A stretch of 64,000 nt of DNA from Chloroflexota bacterium (GTDB taxonomy: Bacteria > Chloroflexota > UBA11872 > VXOZ01). The stretch lies in the NCBI GenBank assembly GCA_965261635.1, contig OZ253463.1, positions 811,879 through 875,878 of the forward strand, read 5' to 3'. Both the position numbers and the translations under genes were made by a program. The notes under the pieces are model-generated. The model searched no databases. It worked only from the letters and a program-made list of their open reading frames with translations, and had not been told where the DNA came from. Of the stretch, positions 20,025 to 59,529 are shown piece by piece (positions within the stretch are counted from its first letter, which is position 1; every line of letters starts with the position of its first letter).

Positions 20025-20459
20025 AACCGGGAGCCAGCGGGGCTAATGGGTACGCATGGTGGTACGGATGCTGCAGGGATAAGGATTCACCGGCCAGGGT
20101 CTTTCTATTGCCGCATTAAACGGTGTGATGGGTCTGCACGATCAACTACCTAACATCGTGCTGGGCTTGGCGACCGGTCGTGCTGAGGTGGCTATGCCCG
20201 GGTCCTGTCGAAGCATGAACGGCCATGTGCGCATATGCCGGAATTCACCCGTGCCGCGATTCCCCCTTCGACACCCTCAGGGCGAGCGGGTTGGCGCTCA
20301 GGGTGAACAAGCATTTGCGTCTAGGGCGGACTGATGATAGTGCGCAACGGAGCCTCCCAAGAGCAAGAGCGCATGACCCCTACCACTATGCGTCGGCGAC
20401 TGCCGGTTTCTCGTGGCTTGTGGTACATTTGTCGGGAGCAAGTCAAAGGAGCGGCCAAG

Positions 20460-21854
20460 ATGAATGTCATCTGGATAGTTGCCGACACTTTCCGCAGGGA
20501 CCACGTAGGCGCCTACGGCAATCCTACGATTCGAACGCCTTCTCTCGATGCGCTGGCGGCCAGGTCGGTCAGGTTCGACGGCCACTATGCTGCCGGCTTC
20601 CCGACCATGCCCACGCGAGCAGACCATCATACGGGGCGCTGGACGATGTCCTTCATGGGTTGGGAGCCCCTGCCTGCGGGAGTGAACACTATAGCGGAAG
20701 TGCTGGCGGATCACGGCTATCATACAGCGGCATCGGTGGATACCCCCTACTATCTAAGGGACGGAATGAACTATGACCGGGGGTTTCAGTCCTTCTTCAT
20801 GAACAGGGGCCAGGATACAATGTGGTCCCTCATCCCTCAGCCCGGCTATCATAATGAATCCCTCGACGTCCGCGAGGCTTGGCGCAACGAATCGGACCGG
20901 AATGCCCCGCGGACGTTCATGACCGCCATGCAGTGGTTGGAACGACACTACAAAGAGGACTTCTTTCTCTACATTGACACCTGGGATCCGCATGAACCTT
21001 GGGATGCGCCAGCTTACTATACAGAGCTCTACTGGCCCGGATACGACGGCGAGGTGGTGCTCCCACTGTACGGAAACTGGCATGACGCGCCGGGGTATGA
21101 CGAAGAGAGGGTCCGGAAGGGTCACGCCACCTATTGTGGTGAAATCACCATGGTCGACACGTGGTTGGGTTTCTTGCTGAAGGCCGTCGAGAACATGGGC
21201 TTGATGGACACGACTGCCATCATCTTCACCACAGACCACGGCTTCTGTTTTGGGGAGCATGGCGGCCTTTTCGGCAAGATGAACGCGGATACGTACCCGG
21301 ACGGGAGCCTGCGGCCCTACGGCGAGCCGGGATCAACGTGGGCCCACTCTCCCCTTTACGAGGAGCTTGTCCACTTGCCGCTTCTGGTTTACGTGCCTGG
21401 CATATGTCCGGGAGTATACAAAGGCCTCAGTTCGGCGGTCGATGTCATGCCGACCGTACTCAATCTGATGGGCATAGAGATTCCGGCCTACGTCCAAGGC
21501 AGGTCCCTAGTGTCTGGGATGCAAGATACTGCACTGCCGGGACGGGAGTACGTAGTCAGCAGCATTCCCTTTGCCAACCCTGGCGATCCGGTACATTCTG
21601 TTGACAGCTTGCTCCGTACCCTTTCAGATTATCCGGTGACCACCATCACGGCGGGAGAATGGAGCTTGCTCTATAGCCCGCAAGCCGGTCTATCGGAACT
21701 ATACAATCTGGATTCCGATCCGAATCAGCTTGAGAACGTCATCGGAACGCACCGAAACGATGCCAAAGATATTCATCGATTCCTGGTTGATTTCATGCAT
21801 GAAACCAACGTGCCGGAACGTCTACTGCAGCCGCGCTTGGAACTGCGTGTATAG
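20460..21854 (+). CDS. Sulfatase-family hydrolase (arylsulfatase-like)
   Basis: N-terminal NVIWIVADTFRRDHVGAYG and HTGRW metal-binding/active-site region. AAAGGAG ribosome-binding site upstream of the ATG at 20460. Confidence 0.75.
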   Translation: MNVIWIVADTFRRDHVGAYGNPTIRTPSLDALAARSVRFDGHYAAGFPTMPTRADHHTGRWTMSFMGWEPLPAGVNTIAEVLADHGYHTAASVDTPYYLRDGMNYDRGFQSFFMNRGQDTMWSLIPQPGYHNESLDVREAWRNESDRNAPRTFMTAMQWLERHYKEDFFLYIDTWDPHEPWDAPAYYTELYWPGYDGEVVLPLYGNWHDAPGYDEERVRKGHATYCGEITMVDTWLGFLLKAVENMGLMDTTAIIFTTDHGFCFGEHGGLFGKMNADTYPDGSLRPYGEPGSTWAHSPLYEELVHLPLLVYVPGICPGVYKGLSSAVDVMPTVLNLMGIEIPAYVQGRSLVSGMQDTALPGREYVVSSIPFANPGDPVHSVDSLLRTLSDYPVTTITAGEWSLLYSPQAGLSELYNLDSDPNQLENVIGTHRNDAKDIHRFLVDFMHETNVPERLLQPRLELRV

Positions 21855-22028: not shown

Positions 22029-23579
22029 ATGAGGAAGCAATACGATCACATTGTCGTCGGGGCGGGCTCGGCAGGTGCGGTCTTGGCGGCCCGATTGACC
22101 GAAGATCGTCACCGGTCGGTTCTGCTTCTCGAGGCCGGGGAGGACTATCCCGCGTTGGATCGGATGCCGGACGCGGTAAAGTACGCCTACGGGATCGACA
22201 CCTCGCTCTGGGCTAGCGGCCACTTGTGGGATTTTCGCGCCAGGGCCACGGATGCAGCCCAGATAGACGTCCCGCGTGGCAAGGTCACCGGCGGTTCCAG
22301 CGCTATCAACGATGCACAGTTTCTTAGAGGAATGCCGGAGGACTTCGAGCGTTGGGCAGCGTGGGGGAACCCCGAATGGGAGTTCGAGAAGGTCTTGCCC
22401 TACCTGAGAAAGTTAGAGGCGGATCAAGATTTTCAAAATGAATTCCATGGCTCGGATGGTCCTATCAGTTGCCGTCGGTATCGGCCTGACGAATGGGGGC
22501 CGCAACAGCACGCCTTCTATCAGGCATGCCGGGACGCCGGTTTCCCCGACTGCCCGGACCACAATCACCCCGACGCCACCGGCGTTGGGCCTCTGGCTTT
22601 CAACATTGACGGCCGCGTGCGGGTGAGTACGGCAATCGGCTACCTTAACCCCGTGCGCACGCGACCGGGGCTGACCGTCAGGCCCCACTGCCTCGTCCAC
22701 CGGATCATTTTCGAGGGCAATCGAGCGGTAGGACTGCACGTGATCAGCGGCCATGAAGAGTTTACCGTCTATGGCGAGGAAGTCATCCTCTGTGCCGGCG
22801 CTATCGGATCGCCACATATCCTTGCGCTGTCGGGTATTGGACCGGCGGCGCAGTTGCGGCGGTTTGGGATACCCATAGTACAAGACCTTCCTGGAGTTGG
22901 GCGCAATCTCCGGGACCACCCGGACGTGCCAATGGCCTGGCGCACGCGTGCAGGATTCCCCTTGAACACCGACCAGGTCGCAACGGGCACTGTCACCCTG
23001 CGGTTTACGGCCTCGGGTTCGTCTTTCAAGAACGACTTGGTCATTTACATGGGCAACTACGCGGCGGCAAGGCCCATGCGGGGGGTGGATCAGCAAAATC
23101 CGGTAGGCATAGGGGTCAGCCTGTGCCTCTACTTGGCCTTGAGCCAGGGCGAACTCCGCATCCAATCTGACGACCCTAGGCACTCGCCTTACCTCGACTT
23201 CAACCTGCTGGACGACCCCTACGATCGTTCACGGCTCCGTGAAAGCCTCAGTACCTGCGCCGACCTGTTCAAGCATGCGGCCTTCGGTGAGATAGTCGAC
23301 GAGCGGTTCGCGCCCTCAGACGAAGCTCTGCAATCCGACGATGCCCTGGACTCCTGGATGCAGCGAGAGGTGGTAACTGCCCACCACGTATCGAGCACGT
23401 GCAAAATGGGGCCCGCAAACGACCCGTTGGCTGTGGTGGATCAGTACGGCAAGGTACACGGCGTTGAGGGACTCCGCATCTGCGACGCATCGATTATGCC
23501 CGATACGGTACGGGCGAACCTCAATCTTACGGTGCTTGCTATGGCGGAGAAGGTCGCTGACTTCATCAAAGCAAGTTAA
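22029..23579 (+). CDS. GMC-family FAD-dependent oxidoreductase (choline dehydrogenase-like)
   Basis: N-terminal FAD motif YDHIVVGAGSAGAVLAARL and the C-terminal GMC signature region (HHVSSTCKMG). Confidence 0.8.
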   Translation: MRKQYDHIVVGAGSAGAVLAARLTEDRHRSVLLLEAGEDYPALDRMPDAVKYAYGIDTSLWASGHLWDFRARATDAAQIDVPRGKVTGGSSAINDAQFLRGMPEDFERWAAWGNPEWEFEKVLPYLRKLEADQDFQNEFHGSDGPISCRRYRPDEWGPQQHAFYQACRDAGFPDCPDHNHPDATGVGPLAFNIDGRVRVSTAIGYLNPVRTRPGLTVRPHCLVHRIIFEGNRAVGLHVISGHEEFTVYGEEVILCAGAIGSPHILALSGIGPAAQLRRFGIPIVQDLPGVGRNLRDHPDVPMAWRTRAGFPLNTDQVATGTVTLRFTASGSSFKNDLVIYMGNYAAARPMRGVDQQNPVGIGVSLCLYLALSQGELRIQSDDPRHSPYLDFNLLDDPYDRSRLRESLSTCADLFKHAAFGEIVDERFAPSDEALQSDDALDSWMQREVVTAHHVSSTCKMGPANDPLAVVDQYGKVHGVEGLRICDASIMPDTVRANLNLTVLAMAEKVADFIKAS

Positions 23580-23794
23580 CCGTGTGGCAGAGCTTGGCAT
23601 GCCGCCACATGCGATATCCCGAGAACCTGACCACACCGCTGGCGTCACCACTGCCGGCACCTTCGTGGTGGCCCCTAAAGTCAACAGATGAGACCGTTCG
23701 CTTGCAGACCCAAAACAGACCACGTAAATGGGCAACGGATAATTCTGATGCATTTCGCTATTCATTCAGAGCAAGTGATGTATAGAGAGATCTG

Positions 23795-25693
23795 TCAACC
23801 AAGAATGCCCTCCAGCTCCATACTATCTTCCCGCACAAGTTCGTAATCGACCGGCGTTTCATCGTACTCCTCAACCATTTCGGATGAGATAGGCTTTCCC
23901 ATCGCCTTCCTGATTGCATTGAGAAGAGCCGACTCTCTAGCGCGGAAGTGTCGATCAAAATCGCTTGACCACAAGTGCTCGGGGTCAATGAGATGCGAGT
24001 CTAGGTAGGTGCTCAACGAGTCTTGCGAAACACCTTCCGATGTGATGCGATTTAGGTATGCCGCAGGCGCCTGGCCGCCGATGCTACGATTTGTTCGTGC
24101 TGTGAGGGGCGTCTTATTGACTATCGAGTCGCAGCGCGCTGCCTCTATCCCCTGCTCGCGGCACCATCTCTGGGGAAAGATGTGATGAATGTCAATCCTC
24201 TCGTCGAAGTAGCCCTGTATCGACGACTCCTCGCCAGTGATCCAATCACAAGCGCCTTCGCGCAAAAGCAGTGCGTAAATACCCTTATATGCCGCGCTAT
24301 TTCGGGTGCGCAGTGTAAGCAGTCGGGTCGGAGCGAACTCAGCGTCATAGATCGTCCCTGGCTCTGGCCCTTCGTCTCGAATCCACTTCACGACCTCTGG
24401 AAGGTCACGGGCAAACCGCGTCTCAACTGAACCACCATACAATTCTCCAAGGACGCCGCACCAATACCAGCGCGCGAGCTTTACCCTAGCAGGCTGCGGC
24501 TCCCAATCACTGTCCAGTACTGTGAGAATCGCGGCCATCGGGATCAACTGGCTGCCATAGGGCAGAAACTTCGCGTCGTAAAGGCGCTGCCCGTGGAGGA
24601 AGCGCGCCGTCCTCTCGAAGCCTTTCATCAGTGGATCCGCCCACCCCTGGTACTCGTCAAGACTAAGCCGCAAAATGTCTGCGCGCTTACACCCCACTCC
24701 CGGCACCCGGTCCGCGCCCGTGCCATCTCGGATGGCAACCCGCCGCCGCTCCAGGGTCGCGAGCAGCGTTATAGCCTGAAGAAAGTCCGTATTGGACACG
24801 CCAGCGAGTATCGACTGGGAGTGGATCGTGCGCTCCCGTTCCTCCCAGTCTGGCCGCAGTTGGAAGTCGTCAGCTGCAAAGATTGCGGTTAGCAGCTCGA
24901 AAACGGTTAGTGTCACGCCTCCAGTGTTCACCTTCTCAAATACTTGGCACACAGCCTGTTTCGGCGTGTCCTTTCCAAGCTCAATTACTGGCACCTGGTA
25001 CAGCTGAATGCGCTTGACGATCTTCTTTTCAAACTCGTTCCACAGTTCTATCTTCTCTCTGTCGTAATCCCAGTATTTTTCGAAGCCCACGCGCCAGTCG
25101 CTCGAGTCGAATGCCTGGGACAGCGGAAAAAGCATCGCCTTATACTCTAGATCGGGAGTCGAGTAGTCCTCTTCGACCTTGCGCCCAAAGCGTTTGATCT
25201 GACGGTCCGCGGGCAGCGAGACCACCGCGTCCTCACGATCAGCAATCGGGTCAAGAGCCAGCGCCATCCTTATGTAGTACCAGCGCTCGATTTTTCGTCC
25301 GTGCTGGTCGCGGGTGTGAACTGGCTGGTCAGGACGGAGAGACTGGAACAGCGAGGTTATCCGCTGCTGGCCGTCTAGGATCAGCCGCTCGGCCTCCTGC
25401 TTTGGCCCCGGCGCACCCTCAAGCGGGCGTTGCTTGAAGCGAACGCTATCGCTGCCGACCTCAAGCATCATGACCGCACCGATAGGGTATCCGAGGGTGA
25501 TGCTTGAGAGAAGGCTCCGCACGTGTTCGTCGTCCCACACCCAGCCTCGCTGAAAATCGGGAAGTTGTGTACTCCCGTCCGATGAACTATCTAGCACCCC
25601 TTGGAGGAATTCATTTTCGATACCGTAGCCCATGTAATCCATCGTGTGCCCCCTTGGGTTGTCGTTGCCAGTCGAACTGCTCGTAACATCCAA
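23795..25693 (-). CDS. GmrSD-family type IV restriction enzyme-like protein (DUF262 N-terminal plus DUF1524 C-terminal His-Me finger)
   Basis: DUF262/ParB-like motifs FQRGWVW and DGQQRITSL. C-terminal DUF1524-like DIHHIFPQRW...NKTPLTARTN (HNH/His-Me finger). Confidence 0.75.
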   Translation of the reverse strand: MDVTSSSTGNDNPRGHTMDYMGYGIENEFLQGVLDSSSDGSTQLPDFQRGWVWDDEHVRSLLSSITLGYPIGAVMMLEVGSDSVRFKQRPLEGAPGPKQEAERLILDGQQRITSLFQSLRPDQPVHTRDQHGRKIERWYYIRMALALDPIADREDAVVSLPADRQIKRFGRKVEEDYSTPDLEYKAMLFPLSQAFDSSDWRVGFEKYWDYDREKIELWNEFEKKIVKRIQLYQVPVIELGKDTPKQAVCQVFEKVNTGGVTLTVFELLTAIFAADDFQLRPDWEERERTIHSQSILAGVSNTDFLQAITLLATLERRRVAIRDGTGADRVPGVGCKRADILRLSLDEYQGWADPLMKGFERTARFLHGQRLYDAKFLPYGSQLIPMAAILTVLDSDWEPQPARVKLARWYWCGVLGELYGGSVETRFARDLPEVVKWIRDEGPEPGTIYDAEFAPTRLLTLRTRNSAAYKGIYALLLREGACDWITGEESSIQGYFDERIDIHHIFPQRWCREQGIEAARCDSIVNKTPLTARTNRSIGGQAPAAYLNRITSEGVSQDSLSTYLDSHLIDPEHLWSSDFDRHFRARESALLNAIRKAMGKPISSEMVEEYDETPVDYELVREDSMELEGILG

Positions 25694-26125
25694 TGTATTA
25701 GGTGCGGGTAACGTCGCGCAACCTGCGTGTTTACTTTTGACGACTTTACACTATGTCGGTTTTGAATTTGCAGCGGCAGTATCCCACAGGATGAGGTGGC
25801 TAAATATGGAGTTCTGCGACCGGTAACTCTGTCACCAGCTAGGCGAGAAACCTATCCAGACCGTCTACCCGAAGCTGCGTTACAACTATCGCGGTCGGTA
25901 GTAGTGGGCAAAGTCTCACATGCCGTTGTCGTCGACACACTGAGGTAGCTGGGCTACCATTCTTAACGCACGACACAATGAACCATAAAGTCGATGGCAT
26001 TGCGCTCTTACGACTTAGTGGCTCACCGGTATACCGAACTCTTTTCACCGAGAAAGCACAGCCAGAGACTGAGCACGCTGGAATTCGGCAAGTGCCACCG
26101 CTGTGCATCAAGAAAACCTAGCGAA

Positions 26126-26776
26126 ATGATGAAAACAACCATTCACGCATTGCGAGCTTCTGCAACGGTGCTCTTGGCCGGTCTTTGCTTCTTCTTGGTC
26201 GTGAGTGAAGTTCGTGCTTGCTCGTGCGGGGATACGCCCTCCCCATCTGTGGCATTGGCGCAATCGTCAAAAGTGTTCTCCGGTAAAGTCGTGCACATAA
26301 GCGATGGCGGCGGCACGCAGAGAGAGCCCGCTCTGCTCAGCGGTTACATATTGGTTGAGTTTGAAGTCTACGCAGTCTGGAAAGGCCCGGCCTATGCCAC
26401 CATGTTCGTCGAGACGGCATGGTGGAGCGGCAGTTGCGGGGTGGAGTTCTATCTTGGACAGGAATGGCTGGTCTACTCCTATGACGGTGAAACCACGCAC
26501 CCTTGCAGCCGCACACGGCCCTTGGAGCTGGCGCAGGCAGACATTGACGAACTTGGCGAGGGCCAAGTGCCTGCCCTGGGAAGTATCGAGCCCTATCAAC
26601 AATCCGGTGACCGGATCGAGCGGACACGCACGCAGGCCGCCGTGGCCGACGCACCCACACCCGCGGCAAGCTCTTTGTGGGATTTCATTCCCGCGTGGCT
26701 GAACTTCGTACTCCTCATAGTTGTGGTGGTAGCAGTGCTGGGCTGGGTGCTGCGTGGGACCAGCCAGAAGGGCTAG
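26126..26776 (+). CDS. Membrane-anchored TIMP/NTR-like domain protein (putative metalloprotease inhibitor)
   Basis: Signal peptide ending VRA|CSCG, giving an N-terminal Cys-x-Cys as in TIMPs. Four Cys are spaced like the TIMP N-domain disulfides (CSC ... SGSCGVEF ... HPCS). VWKGP and GQEWLVYS motifs parallel TIMP FKGPE and EYLIAG. C-terminal transmembrane helix. The listed ORF starts earlier (25994). Confidence 0.5.
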   Translation: MMKTTIHALRASATVLLAGLCFFLVVSEVRACSCGDTPSPSVALAQSSKVFSGKVVHISDGGGTQREPALLSGYILVEFEVYAVWKGPAYATMFVETAWWSGSCGVEFYLGQEWLVYSYDGETTHPCSRTRPLELAQADIDELGEGQVPALGSIEPYQQSGDRIERTRTQAAVADAPTPAASSLWDFIPAWLNFVLLIVVVVAVLGWVLRGTSQKG

Positions 26777-26935: not shown

Positions 26936-27904
26936 CTATGCCCGAAACGGCTTGCCGGTACGGCGGAGCTCCTTGGTGACGGCTATCTGGCAGGTGACGT
27001 AGGCGCTTTCGGTCGGTCTGCCGCGGTGGTTCATGTCGCCGGCGGAGTAGCCGGGGCGGGCGTCGCCGATGGTGCCGACGATCAAGTTTGCGTGTTCCGT
27101 GGTCGTATCGTAGCGATCGGCGATGAGGCCCACCATATCCGCCCACGCCGCGCGCACGGCATCCGTCCATGTCCGGCCCTGACCGCTGGTGAGGTATTCC
27201 TCGGCGCACTCGGCCACGTTGGTGGTCTCAACCACAGGGCTGGAGGTCGAGAAGCCCGGCGAGCGGTCGACGCGGATAGTTACGGCCGTGTCGATCTCCA
27301 CGCCGGTGCCGGTGAGTTCGCCGTCCGACATGCGCGCGTGGGCGTCGGCCAGAGTCAGCAGGCCGCCGGGCTTCTGCGCGCGAATGTGCACGGTGCTGCC
27401 GGGGCGCACGGAATTGAAGTCCATATTGCCGCCGTGGTCGATCTCATAGGGATCAACGGATTCCAGCATCACCACGCCCACCATGGGGCGTTCCGGCACC
27501 ACGAAGTCCGGAGGAAAGTGCACAAGTCCGTCGCGGACGGGGGCGATGAGGCGCACGCTGCCCCAGATGGGGCCGCCGTTGCGATAGAAGCCGTAGGGGC
27601 CGACCTCCATATCCAGGATTTCGATTGCCACCCAGTCTCCCGGCTCGATGCCCTCGATGAAGAACGGCCCGCCCGGCCGTGAGTAGCGCGGCGTGCCGAC
27701 TTCCATGACTGCGCCGGGCTTGAGTTCGCCTTTTATCTTCAGGTCCTGGTCGTGGCCGCCGACCGTCTCGATGACGACCGTCTCGCCGAGCCGCAAAGTG
27801 CCTCTAAGTTCATTGCGCTCAGGATCGTTGGGCCCGCTGTAGTAGGGTGTACGGGTGAAGCGTCGCATGCGAATCCTCCCGCTTGCGGTATTGTTCGGCC
27901 GCAT
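26936..27904 (-). CDS. Acetamidase/formamidase (FmdA_AmdA) family protein, paralog A
   Basis: 322 aa with conserved FmdA/AmdA blocks (GPIWGSV..., HGGNMDFNSVRPGSTVHIRAQKPGGLLTLADAHARMSDGE). Confidence 0.75.
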   Translation of the reverse strand: MRPNNTASGRIRMRRFTRTPYYSGPNDPERNELRGTLRLGETVVIETVGGHDQDLKIKGELKPGAVMEVGTPRYSRPGGPFFIEGIEPGDWVAIEILDMEVGPYGFYRNGGPIWGSVRLIAPVRDGLVHFPPDFVVPERPMVGVVMLESVDPYEIDHGGNMDFNSVRPGSTVHIRAQKPGGLLTLADAHARMSDGELTGTGVEIDTAVTIRVDRSPGFSTSSPVVETTNVAECAEEYLTSGQGRTWTDAVRAAWADMVGLIADRYDTTTEHANLIVGTIGDARPGYSAGDMNHRGRPTESAYVTCQIAVTKELRRTGKPFRA

Positions 27905-28192: not shown

Positions 28193-28269
<77 letters not shown>

Positions 28270-28703
28270 AACTGGACAAAATCAAGGACCTTCAATTTAA
28301 GGTTCGTTCTGGACCTGTGATGGGTGTGCTGGCGAGGGCCGGTCCAGTCTCAAAATCCCATGCCAGCTATGTGAAGACCAGGGAATCGGACGGATGCACA
28401 GTCATGATGAGGCATCGGCAGAGAAGCGGTGAAGGAGGCGAAAAGTTGCGGCTGGTATTGGCTGGCGTTGTCTTCGTACTGATATGCGATTAACCAGAAG
28501 CTAGGTGCTCGCAAATTTGTGGGGAAGACCCGTCGCCTGTGCCACCCCTGGACTACCTCAAGAGCAGGCTCCGAAACTCACACAAGGTGGGCTTGCCCGC
28601 TCTCCATGCGCCATCACCCCACTCGCTCAAGTGGTTCGACAGGCTCACCACGAGCGGTAAGGGCAGGGGTTTGCCATGAGCGGTAAGGAGGATAGGCTCA
28701 CCA

Positions 28704-29183
28704 TTGATGAACGTGGTCAGACACTTCACCGCCACCGGGTTTGTTGTGCATGACGAGAGCGTCCTGCTGCACTGGCACCCAAAGGTCAAAGAGTGGCTGC
28801 CCCCAGGCGGCCACATCGAAGACAACGAGGACCCTGTCCAGGCCGTCCTGCGGGAGATACGGGAGGAGACGGGTCTGACTGCCGAGGTCGTGCCCACCGG
28901 GATCGTCCTGGACCTGGAGCATCCGGTACCGGTCTATCCTCCGTTCACCATAATGGTGGAGAATATCCATGACCCGGTGGATGGGTATCACCAGCACATC
29001 GACATGATCTACTTCTGCCGGCTCCCAGGTGTACCCGGCCCGTTGAACGACGGTTGGATATGGGTGAGCAGATCGGACGTTGAAGCGAAACTGCCCCTGG
29101 ACGTCGCCGGCGCTCCAGTCAAATCGCCTCCCGAAGATGTTCGCCTGCTGGCAATAAGGGCCTTAGACCTGGCCCCAATGTGA
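28704..29183 (+). CDS. NUDIX hydrolase
   Basis: NUDIX box GGHIEDNEDPVQAVLREIREETGL. Confidence 0.8.
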   Translation: MMNVVRHFTATGFVVHDESVLLHWHPKVKEWLPPGGHIEDNEDPVQAVLREIREETGLTAEVVPTGIVLDLEHPVPVYPPFTIMVENIHDPVDGYHQHIDMIYFCRLPGVPGPLNDGWIWVSRSDVEAKLPLDVAGAPVKSPPEDVRLLAIRALDLAPM

Positions 29184-29414
29184 CGTAGGCGCACCCGCTC
29201 ATTTGGTTCGACATCCCGGTAGCGATAGGAACTTGCGTTCCTCCCCCTGTCACGCCACAATGCTTAGGTCAAGGGCCTAGGTAGGCTCACAGAGCCCCCT
29301 AGCCACATCTCGAAGATGGTTCTGTCTACTGTCAAAACAGGCCCACCTGGAGATGGCTTTCAGATTTTGTTCCGACCAATTCAGCCGCGCAGAGCGGGGA
29401 TTGAAGTGAACGCA

Positions 29415-58958: not shown

Positions 58959-59529
58959 CGCCCATGGGTGCTCGCCCTGAGAAGCGGCGACTAAGCGAGT
59001 CTTGGACTAAAACCGACACCGGCCCTTGGGGGAAAGGGCCGGTGTGGGTTGGTGCGAACAGGAGGAGTATTCAGGAAGAAAGCAGTATCAACAATCCGAG
59101 TTGCTGAGAATTAATGGGAATCCGTAGATGCCGCCATACGTGAGTTCGTAGGCAAACAGGCGGCGTGGTAGTGCCGCAATAAGACGGGAGGAAGTGGGAA
59201 TGTTGTCTACTAACAACAAAAGAGCTTCCTTGGCTTTGCCAGCCAAAAGCTCTCTCTATCGCCTACGAGGTTAGCTGTCGGGTTAGGGTGGAAAGAGTCA
59301 CCCTCCGCACGACGGCGGTTCACCCCAAAGTGCCGGGTCCCCCGCTCCGATATCGGACTTGGCGCGTTTCTTCAGTAAATACAGGATACCATGGTTTTCG
59401 CATGAATGCAAGGGCGAAATAGCGTAGATGAGCCCAAAAATTCAGATTTAAATCGCTTGGTAGCGGAAGCCAAGGCAAGAACTTGGGAATCTGCGTGCCG
59501 GTCGGGACACATCCGGTTCCGAAATGAGG

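Follow-up and report, generated by a model that had tools for sequence, protein, structure and literature searches.

Tissue inhibitors of metalloproteinases (TIMPs) are textbook animal regulators of matrix metalloproteases (MMPs), and in TIMP-MMP complexes the alpha-amino and carbonyl groups of the first mature residue, Cys1, chelate the catalytic zinc. Whether bacteria possess proteins of this kind is a question raised by one gene in a 64,000-nucleotide stretch of contig OZ253463.1 (Chloroflexota bacterium, GenBank assembly GCA_965261635.1, positions 811,879 to 875,878), hereafter the window, for which an earlier note made from the letters alone had proposed a membrane-anchored, TIMP-like product with a processed N-terminal Cys-x-Cys. 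The resemblance of the window protein to TIMPs is far beyond chance and its homology with the TIMP N-domain is close to certain; the protein has no new fold and is a bacterial, membrane-anchored variant of that domain with two predicted disulfides. It is best explained as a type I membrane protein with an extracytoplasmic domain homologous to the inhibitory N-domain of animal TIMPs. In what follows, P-numbers denote homologous proteins and L-numbers related loci.

The gene lies where the earlier note had placed it and encodes 216 residues, with the ATG at 26126 and the stop codon TAG at 26774-26776. The open reading frame (ORF) delimited mechanically extends further upstream, to an ATG at 25994. 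Homologues start at the MMKTT position (P0001) or have non-conserved N-termini a few residues either way, and the DNA synteny with related genomes resumes only at 26127-26215, for which reasons 26126 is the supported start. The longer start at 25994 was rejected, as the extension is unconserved and lies in a variable region. The gene is real and under purifying selection: compared with seven orthologues, the ratio of nonsynonymous to synonymous substitution rates (dN/dS) was 0.23-0.42 for the whole gene, and for the central domain (residues 32-147) six comparisons gave 0.12-0.17 and the remaining one 0.33.

The homology was examined with a profile built from an alignment of 66 diverse family members (A1), in which columns A31, C32, C34, F51, G53, W85, K86, V116, L143, and G144 are invariant and C104, G105, C127, R129, and T130, among others, nearly so. 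Searched against 177,635 PDB sequences, this profile retrieved TIMP-2 at E = 9e-8, TIMP-1 and TIMP-3 weakly, and nothing else meaningful. The alignment spans A1 positions 32-128 and TIMP-2 residues 1-101, and places C32/C34/C104/C127 on C1/C3/C72/C101 of TIMP-2 and C1/C3/C70/C99 of TIMP-1. This column-for-column agreement, found in the profile alignment and with hhalign alike, bears out the proposal that the cysteine spacing corresponds to that of the partners in the TIMP C1-C70 and C3-C99 disulfides. The KGP and EWLVY motifs, also pointed out in the earlier note, do align with FKGPE and EYLIAG of TIMP-2 in the hidden Markov model alignment, the family counterparts being WKGP for FKGP, SCG for VCG, and EYLVY for EYLIAG. 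When the family was compared by hhalign with the N-domains of the four human TIMPs (TIMP-1 to -4; the TIMP-2 sequence used matches the PDB alignment at residues 1-101 apart from residue 22, a position that varies among the PDB chains themselves), the probability was 96.9% and the E-value 1.3e-10. Individually, 23 of the 66 members matched the Pfam TIMP model (PF00965) at E ≤ 1, and the two examined in detail, P0214 (39.5 bits) and P0128 (32.6 bits), exceeded its gathering score of 23.1 bits, covering profile positions 1 to ~115 of 183 and thus the N-domain only. A pairwise BLASTP of the mature domain with N-TIMP-2 gave 28% identity over 90 residues (E 4e-6). For the Pfam netrin-type (NTR) model PF01759, no match was found for the window protein, and just one of the 66 members matched, at E 0.088.

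The predicted structure points in the same direction and agrees with the oligonucleotide/oligosaccharide-binding (OB) fold expected in the earlier note. AlphaFold2 modelling with A1 gave a mean predicted local distance difference test (pLDDT) of 84.8 for the full-length protein, while the mature domain alone (residues 32-150, 104-sequence alignment) reached a pLDDT of 88.0 and a predicted template modelling (pTM) score of 0.82, a single loop (mature residues 31-39) being disordered. With both models, the top 17-18 Foldseek matches in the PDB were exclusively TIMP-1 and TIMP-2 (E 2e-5 to 9e-4, probability 1.00), and the best template modelling score (TM-score), 0.68 on both normalisations, belonged to N-TIMP-1 in complex with MT1-MMP (3ma2_C; 23-25% identity). 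Non-inhibitory NTR domains (PCOLCE1, C345C of complement C5, meteorin, and agrin NtA) ranked below the TIMPs. Such NTR modules (PF01759) share the fold class with the window protein (Foldseek E 7e-4 to 8e-2, TM-score 0.43-0.59), but their structural similarity to the window family is lower and their sequence similarity negligible; moreover, the module is internal or C-terminal in these proteins, so that Cys1 is not a free N-terminus.

The N-terminus itself was analyzed in 209 homologues with a CxC motif located 15-60 residues into the sequence. In 207 of these, Ala directly precedes the first Cys (position -1). Position -3 is occupied by A/V/T/S/G/I with four exceptions (three Leu, one Cys) and position -2 mainly by Y/H/N/R/F, and a strongly hydrophobic stretch lies ahead of the predicted cleavage site, whereas the lipobox [LVI][ASTVI][GAS]C fits only 8; the set is enriched in close orthologues, and these counts are therefore not independent events. 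In the window protein the predicted cleavage falls at VRA↓C within ...VSEVRA↓CSCGD... (the mature protein thus starting with CSCGDTPSPS...), and its V-R-A-C does not conform to the lipobox. Because of the near-invariant Ala↓Cys junction with its (-3,-1) pattern, and because of the poor lipobox fit, the sequences consistently suggest classical signal peptidase I cleavage with Cys1 at the predicted mature N-terminus across the family, in line with the signal peptide exposing Cys1-Ser-Cys3 that the earlier note had envisaged. A free N-terminal Cys separates inhibitory TIMPs from other NTR modules, and residue 2 of TIMPs enters the S1' pocket and is an S1' determinant. In the homologues, residue 2 is Ser in 180 of 209 and otherwise K/L/T/M and others; judged from the sequences, a variable residue between two invariant Cys would fit a specificity position.

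The claim of only two further cysteines holds for the mature part, which has exactly four (C32, C34, C104 in SGSCG, and C127 in HPCS), but not for the whole protein, as a fifth, C21, is found inside the signal peptide. In mature numbering the four are C1, C3, C73, and C96, as compared with 1/3/70/99 in TIMP-1 and 1/3/72/101 in TIMP-2. Exactly four Cys are likewise present in the domain of 151 of 155 distant homologues, and with only these four the third N-TIMP disulfide (C13-C124/126) is absent. In all other respects the sequence agrees with the description in the earlier note, and nothing that the note had named as refuting evidence turned up, the pairing of the Cys being judged indirectly from the alignments.

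Animal TIMPs (PF00965, MEROPS I35) and the window protein thus have in common a signal peptide directly before Cys1-x-Cys3, partner Cys at equivalent columns, the motifs [FYW]-K-G, C-G, and E-[YW]-L and, according to the model, the N-TIMP OB-fold (a five-stranded barrel with flanking helices; TM-score 0.68 to N-TIMP-1, 23-28% identity). They differ in that the column of TIMP C13 is occupied by Gln/Ser/Ala and in that the C-terminal subdomain of TIMPs (about 60 residues with three disulfides) is missing, residues 148-216 of the window protein being a Cys-free linker and a transmembrane helix. The CSRT and LGEG motifs are specific to the bacterial family, which also has one extra residue before a conserved Pro. 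The window protein is accordingly not a canonical TIMP: it lacks the third disulfide and the C-domain, and it stays below the Pfam threshold. The C-terminal transmembrane helix foreseen in the earlier note was recovered both by hydropathy (Kyte-Doolittle mean over 15 residues of 3.3) and in the AlphaFold2 model.

While the earlier note was right that bacterial TIMP-like proteins are rarely described in the literature, they are not rare in sequence space: in a library of 50%-identity representatives, 4,168 clusters were retrieved at E ≤ 1e-3 and 821 at E ≤ 1e-10. The window protein has 64 close relatives, and its orthologues are located in Chloroflexota chromosomes of about 3.5 Mb obtained as metagenome-assembled genomes (MAGs). 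Dehalococcoidia, Tepidiformaceae, Ardenticatenales, and Caldilineae harbour more distant members, as do a gammaproteobacterial MAG (sample SB0662), Nannocystis and other Myxococcota, and cultured Bacillota (Ureibacillus, Lysinibacillus, Lederbergia, and Paenibacillus odorifer). A scan of a genome collection (11 query sequences, one narrow pattern) yielded 11 loci and under-sampled this taxonomic range, which was filled in by the other searches. No relative was found in the viral contigs scanned, hence there is no sign of phage carriage. All members are named 'hypothetical protein' at NCBI, and several from Bacillota carry the automatic UniRef name 'Tissue inhibitor of metalloproteinase', which presumably derives from a Pfam match. 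These Bacillota proteins (e.g., Ureibacillus galli WP_191705728.1, Lederbergia citri WP_213124885.1, and that of Paenibacillus odorifer) belong to the same family as the window protein, which shares 36% identity with that of U. galli (pairwise E 3e-24), and they have in common with it the A↓CSC start, the motifs SCG, CSRT, and LGEG, and a transmembrane helix at the C-terminus; they differ in scoring above the Pfam TIMP cut-off, the Chloroflexota branch being below it.

The C-terminal part of the family is more variable. Among the 155 distant homologues, an LGxG motif follows the last Cys in 134 and a C-terminal hydrophobic helix is present in about 122; most homologues have at least two R/K among the last 10 residues, and the linker is often Pro/Thr-rich and of variable length. 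About 50 of these distant members carry a G-x-C motif ahead of the helix, which is absent from the window protein. A few of the GxC-tailed relatives match MYXO-CTERM weakly (E 0.015), and some are named 'MYXO-CTERM domain-containing protein' by JGI. A sorting signal of this type was not recognised in the window protein, which has the transmembrane helix and RGTSQKG but neither the Cys motif nor an NCBIfam match. Many members (e.g., P0058, P0061, P0215, and P0257 and P0266 from JGI) end in G-G-C-G or G-x-C, a hydrophobic helix, and RRxRR; weak MYXO-CTERM, GPS-CTERM, and JDVT-CTERM matches to such tails, also in Chloroflexota, suggest an uncharacterised C-terminal sorting signal in this phylum.

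The number of domains varies as well. P0131 (462 residues) and P0173 (1189 residues, Caldilineae/Chloroflexota) contain three tandem TIMP-like modules. Module 1 follows a signal peptide and opens with A↓CSC, while modules 2 and 3 start at an internal CPRC or CPPC (CxxC, not CxC) and therefore have no free N-terminal Cys unless they are processed. On a Dehalococcoidia contig, a tandem paralogue (L021 7203..7991; L022 7191..7991) lies 10 bp upstream of the other copy and shares the A↓CSC, SCG, CSRT, and LGEG motifs, its C-terminal tail being apparently frameshifted or degenerate; P0057 and P0063 look like similar frameshift products.

Both flanking genes in the window, one of GmrSD type and one of the acetamidase/formamidase family (Table 1), lie on the opposite strand, so the TIMP-like gene looks monocistronic; a scan for promoters and terminators gave nothing above shuffled expectation. 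In one metagenomic lineage (L024 4253..7609 and L025 3..2765), the TIMP-like gene begins at the base after the stop codon of a gene for a 915-residue Ser/Thr kinase with faint Tricorn_N/PD40 matches, a layout that suggests translational coupling. In Lysinibacillus sp. PLM2 (L032 1..7600, AP025689.1), it lies on the same strand just downstream of a cluster comprising an Opp-like ABC transporter, an LD-carboxypeptidase (S66), an S11 carboxypeptidase, an NlpC/P60 hydrolase, and a Usp gene; this cluster looks like one for peptidoglycan-peptide recycling and recalls the cell-wall phenotype of Listeria Tim (see below). In one Dehalococcoidia context, genes for a copper P-type ATPase, a YHS protein, and a cytochrome c are found ~5.5-6 kb downstream.

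What could such a protein do? By analogy with animal TIMPs, we give a probability of about one half to the reading that it is a TIMP-like inhibitor of zinc proteases at the cell surface. Following Sec export, signal peptidase I would cut after Ala31 and leave Cys32 as a free N-terminus, as the Ala↓Cys junction and the (-3,-1) pattern imply, and oxidative folding would yield an OB-fold barrel held together by two disulfides, Cys32-Cys104 and Cys34-Cys127, as expected from the column-for-column homology with TIMPs. The flexible linker and C-terminal helix would keep this domain on the external side of the cytoplasmic membrane. If the analogy extends to the complex, the ridge formed by Cys32-Ser33-Cys34 and Ser103-Cys104 would enter the active-site cleft of a metzincin-type zinc endopeptidase, where the alpha-amino and carbonyl groups of Cys32 would chelate the catalytic zinc and Ser33 would occupy S1', as in TIMP-MMP complexes. 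The most likely role would be to shield the cell surface from metalloproteases that are exogenous or diffusely secreted; this is favoured over the control of an own enzyme because self-protease inhibitors usually sit beside their protease, and the TIMP-like gene never does so in the contexts examined. Ecotin and bacterial alpha-2-macroglobulin are stand-alone envelope inhibitors with a presumed role in protecting the cell against exogenous proteases, a logic like the one proposed here, but they have unrelated folds, act on other protease classes or by trapping, and are periplasmic rather than anchored by a C-terminal helix. The serralysin inhibitors (Pseudomonas APRin and Serratia SmaPI; MEROPS I38) and Tannerella potempin A are alike in principle, being bacterial beta-barrels that block metzincin active sites, and APRin inserts its N-terminal residues into the cleft, with the N-terminal amino group in contact with the zinc. 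They differ from the window protein by their unrelated folds and sequences and by genes located next to that of the cognate protease. A TIMP-like binding mode has been remarked upon for a serralysin inhibitor (PMC8235301), and potempins are surface-anchored (PMC9890683). In a probably sponge-associated lineage, host MMPs are, by the same analogy, a possible target; other bins of sample SB0662 are among the sponge-associated Entoporibacteria (PMC7883664), which makes a sponge association of the window lineage plausible.

Several observations weigh against the inhibitor reading. The window protein alone is below Pfam detection, giving no match even at E ≤ 10 against Pfam, NCBIfam, or PDB sequences, and it has neither the third N-TIMP disulfide nor a TIMP C-domain. 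Bacterial self-protease inhibitors (aprI, potempins) are encoded beside their protease; in the 64-kb window no ORF of at least 100 residues with HExxH was found, the flanks of the 18 related loci L001-L018 contain only spurious alternative-frame HExxH ORFs, and no adjacent secreted metalloprotease was detected in about 14 independent Pfam-annotated neighbourhoods (Dehalococcoidia, other Chloroflexota, Nannocystis and a related myxobacterial contig, Paenibacillus, Lysinibacillus, and metagenome contigs), where the sole match to a peptidase M family was a cytoplasmic-type M24. The searchable literature holds no experimental study of any family member. The fold is also used in a way incompatible with the TIMP chelation mechanism, which the internal CPRC/CPPC modules cannot follow, and most animal NTR modules are not inhibitors. 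The netrin, agrin NtA, PCOLCE, and complement C345C modules exemplify a non-inhibitory binding mode, and the window protein could be a surface module of this type, acting as an adhesin or in ligand binding (polysaccharide, cell wall, or protein) with an N-terminal Cys that is merely structural. The Foldseek matches to PCOLCE1 NTR (E 7e-4, TM-score 0.58), C5 C345C, meteorin, and agrin NtA are in keeping with this possibility, as are the three-module relatives, the surface-sorting-type tails of many members (GxC, transmembrane helix, Arg-rich end), the lack of a protease neighbour in the contexts examined, and the position of the Lysinibacillus gene just downstream of the putative recycling cluster. 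Nevertheless, we regard this reading, the main rival, as somewhat unlikely, given that the best matches in sequence and structure are all inhibitory TIMPs, that PF01759 recognises a single member of the profile alignment, and that a merely structural Cys would not need a near-invariant Ala↓Cys junction. The tandem paralogues were counted as support for the inhibitor reading.

The remaining explanations assign other tasks to the N-terminus or the cysteines. The only characterised bacterial protein of this kind in the searchable literature, similar to TIMPs in structure only, is Tim of Listeria monocytogenes (LMRG_00714), a bacterial and membrane-tethered protein with a TIMP-like fold prediction (PMC8235301). 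It is TIMP-like in fold 'but not in sequence', and its authors state that bacterial proteins resembling TIMPs were not on record (PMC8235301); this lipoprotein is anchored at its N-terminus, is always encoded adjacent to the metzincin Mtz and is cleaved by it, the fragment sensitising the cell wall (PMC8235301). That the window protein is a protease-processed regulator or decoy of this kind, its domain being shed from the membrane to act on the envelope or to signal, is improbable: the long, poorly conserved linker between domain and anchor, the invariant LGEG motif at the end of the domain, and the kinase gene abutting the TIMP-like gene in one lineage could be understood in this way, yet no metzincin is adjacent here, as opposed to the obligate mtz-tim pairing in Listeria, and the orientation is reversed, with a predicted free N-terminus and a C-terminal anchor instead of an N-terminal lipoprotein anchor. 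In contrast to Tim, the window family also has real sequence homology to TIMPs, and no partner gene was found. A thiol-based protein, in which four Cys would bind Cu/Zn or shuttle electrons, would account for the four invariant Cys, including the N-terminal CxC, and would give a meaning to the copper-related genes in the Dehalococcoidia context. It is very improbable, since these Cys align exactly with two structural TIMP disulfides, the invariant columns include no conserved set of His/Met/Asp ligands, the domain is extracytoplasmic, where disulfides are expected, and the copper genes are near in a single lineage and not adjacent. The least probable reading is a lipoprotein whose Cys, directly following a hydrophobic signal sequence, is lipid-modified at a signal peptidase II site, blocking the N-terminus. 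The lipobox does fit the eight homologues mentioned above, but the other 201 violate it, with Y/H/N/R/F at position -2, the window protein has Arg there, and a C-terminal membrane anchor is already present; this reading was rejected on the statistics of the -2 and -3 residues.

The existence of a bacterial family whose homology to N-TIMP is statistically solid in both sequence and fold runs counter to a metazoan-only picture of TIMPs. A phylogenomic study from 2023, which makes no mention of bacteria, placed the TIMP origin in the eumetazoan ancestor and noted that the sponge Amphimedon queenslandica has no TIMPs (PMC10755359). The bacterial variant is already in the databases, partly under automatic labels, but is unstudied, and it keeps the mechanistic hallmark, a Cys exactly at the predicted mature N-terminus. 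It is conceivable, though on present evidence unlikely, that N-TIMP is not a eumetazoan invention but an ancient and huge family of bacterial surface-tethered inhibitors from which animal TIMPs arose, possibly by horizontal transfer, and that sponge symbionts supply TIMP-like activity against host or foreign MMPs. If family members do inhibit metzincins, they would form a new and abundant class of bacterial metalloprotease inhibitors, offer small two-disulfide TIMP scaffolds for protein engineering, and open a concrete route to testing the origin of TIMPs, while the apparently sponge-associated window lineage suggests a possible route of symbiont-host matrix interaction. As the family includes culturable hosts (Paenibacillus odorifer, Lysinibacillus, and Ureibacillus), the hypothesis is directly testable.

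Table 1. Features of the TIMP-like gene and of its surroundings, in window positions
Feature	Position	Strand	Basis
Complete TIMP-like membrane protein gene, stop included	26126..26776	+	ORF, sequence, 64 close homologues, purifying selection
Signal peptide, residues 1-31	26126..26218	+	n-region MMKTTIHALR, h-region ASATVLLAGLCFFLVV, c-region SEVRA (V at -3, A at -1)
Cys32-Ser33-Cys34, predicted mature N-terminus (Cys1-x-Cys3)	26219..26227	+	C32, C34 invariant in 66 sequences; aligned to TIMP-2 C1, C3
TIMP N-domain-like OB-fold domain, residues 32-147	26219..26566	+	Profile, hhalign, AlphaFold2, Foldseek, dN/dS
Ser103-Cys104-Gly105, counterpart of the TIMP C-D connector (S/A-V-C-G) bearing the Cys1 disulfide partner	26432..26440	+	C104, G105 nearly invariant; aligned to TIMP-2 C72-G73
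Cys127-Ser-Arg129-Thr130; Cys127 is the predicted Cys34 partner	26504..26515	+	C127, R129, T130 nearly invariant; C127 on TIMP-2 C101, TIMP-1 C99
LGEG motif Leu143-Gly144-Glu-Gly146, closing the domain	26552..26563	+	L143, G144 invariant, G146 nearly so; no TIMP counterpart noted
Linker, residues 148-186, poorly conserved, partly helical in the model	26567..26683	+	AlphaFold2 helix 158-174 (pLDDT 67-73); alignment gaps; dN/dS 0.33-0.57
C-terminal transmembrane helix, residues 187-209 (FIPAWLNFVLLIVVVVAVLGWVL)	26684..26752	+	Kyte-Doolittle, AlphaFold2 helix 190-213
Short cytoplasmic tail RGTSQKG	26753..26773	+	Sequence; positive charges fit N-out/C-in (type I) topology
Sulfatase gene	20334..21854		
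GMC oxidoreductase gene	22029..23579		
Variable islet	23621..26183		Synteny with related loci
GmrSD-type gene	23795..25693	-	GmrSD_N (PF03235); PADLOC matches PDC-M55C, HEC-05
Acetamidase/formamidase-family gene	26936..27904	-	
tRNA-Val (cac)	28193..28269		
tRNA-adjacent insert	28270..29337		Synteny with related loci
NUDIX gene	28704..29183		
c-di-AMP riboswitch (ydaO/yuaA type, RF00379)	59245..59374	-	98.8 bits (gathering score 38)

Immediately upstream of the TIMP-like gene, and holding the GmrSD-type gene, lies a variable islet. The GmrSD_N gene with its PADLOC matches is found in the islet of the window, L013, and L011, the same slot in L002-L005 is occupied by a different gene encoding a 798-residue AAA/ORC-CDC6-like protein, and L008, L009, L010, and L012 have no counterpart of the window islet, the slot measuring only ~200-300 bp in L008 and L010. 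The site flanked by the GMC oxidoreductase and TIMP-like genes looks like a hot spot for defence genes. Its right-hand boundary falls in, or at the start of, the signal-peptide codons, as homology starts again at 26127-26215, the exact point varying with the relative. The synonymous divergence (dS) of codons 1-31 is 0.6-1.0, compared with 0.05-0.24 for the domain in the closer relatives, and the 5' end of the TIMP-like gene seems to have been exchanged together with the islet.

Upstream of the islet, the sulfatase and GMC oxidoreductase genes differ among relatives, with a fusion of 1039 residues in L005 and the GMC gene in two pieces in L002 and L004; these fusions and splits are probably frameshift or assembly differences among near-identical contigs. 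On the other side of the TIMP-like gene, synteny with L013, L009, and L010 is lost precisely at the 3' terminus of the tRNA-Val gene and regained at 29338. The intervening ~1.07 kb, which carry the NUDIX gene and are present also in L002, are a small tRNA-adjacent insertion or deletion. Further downstream, the score of the c-di-AMP riboswitch on the reverse strand is well above its gathering score (Table 1).

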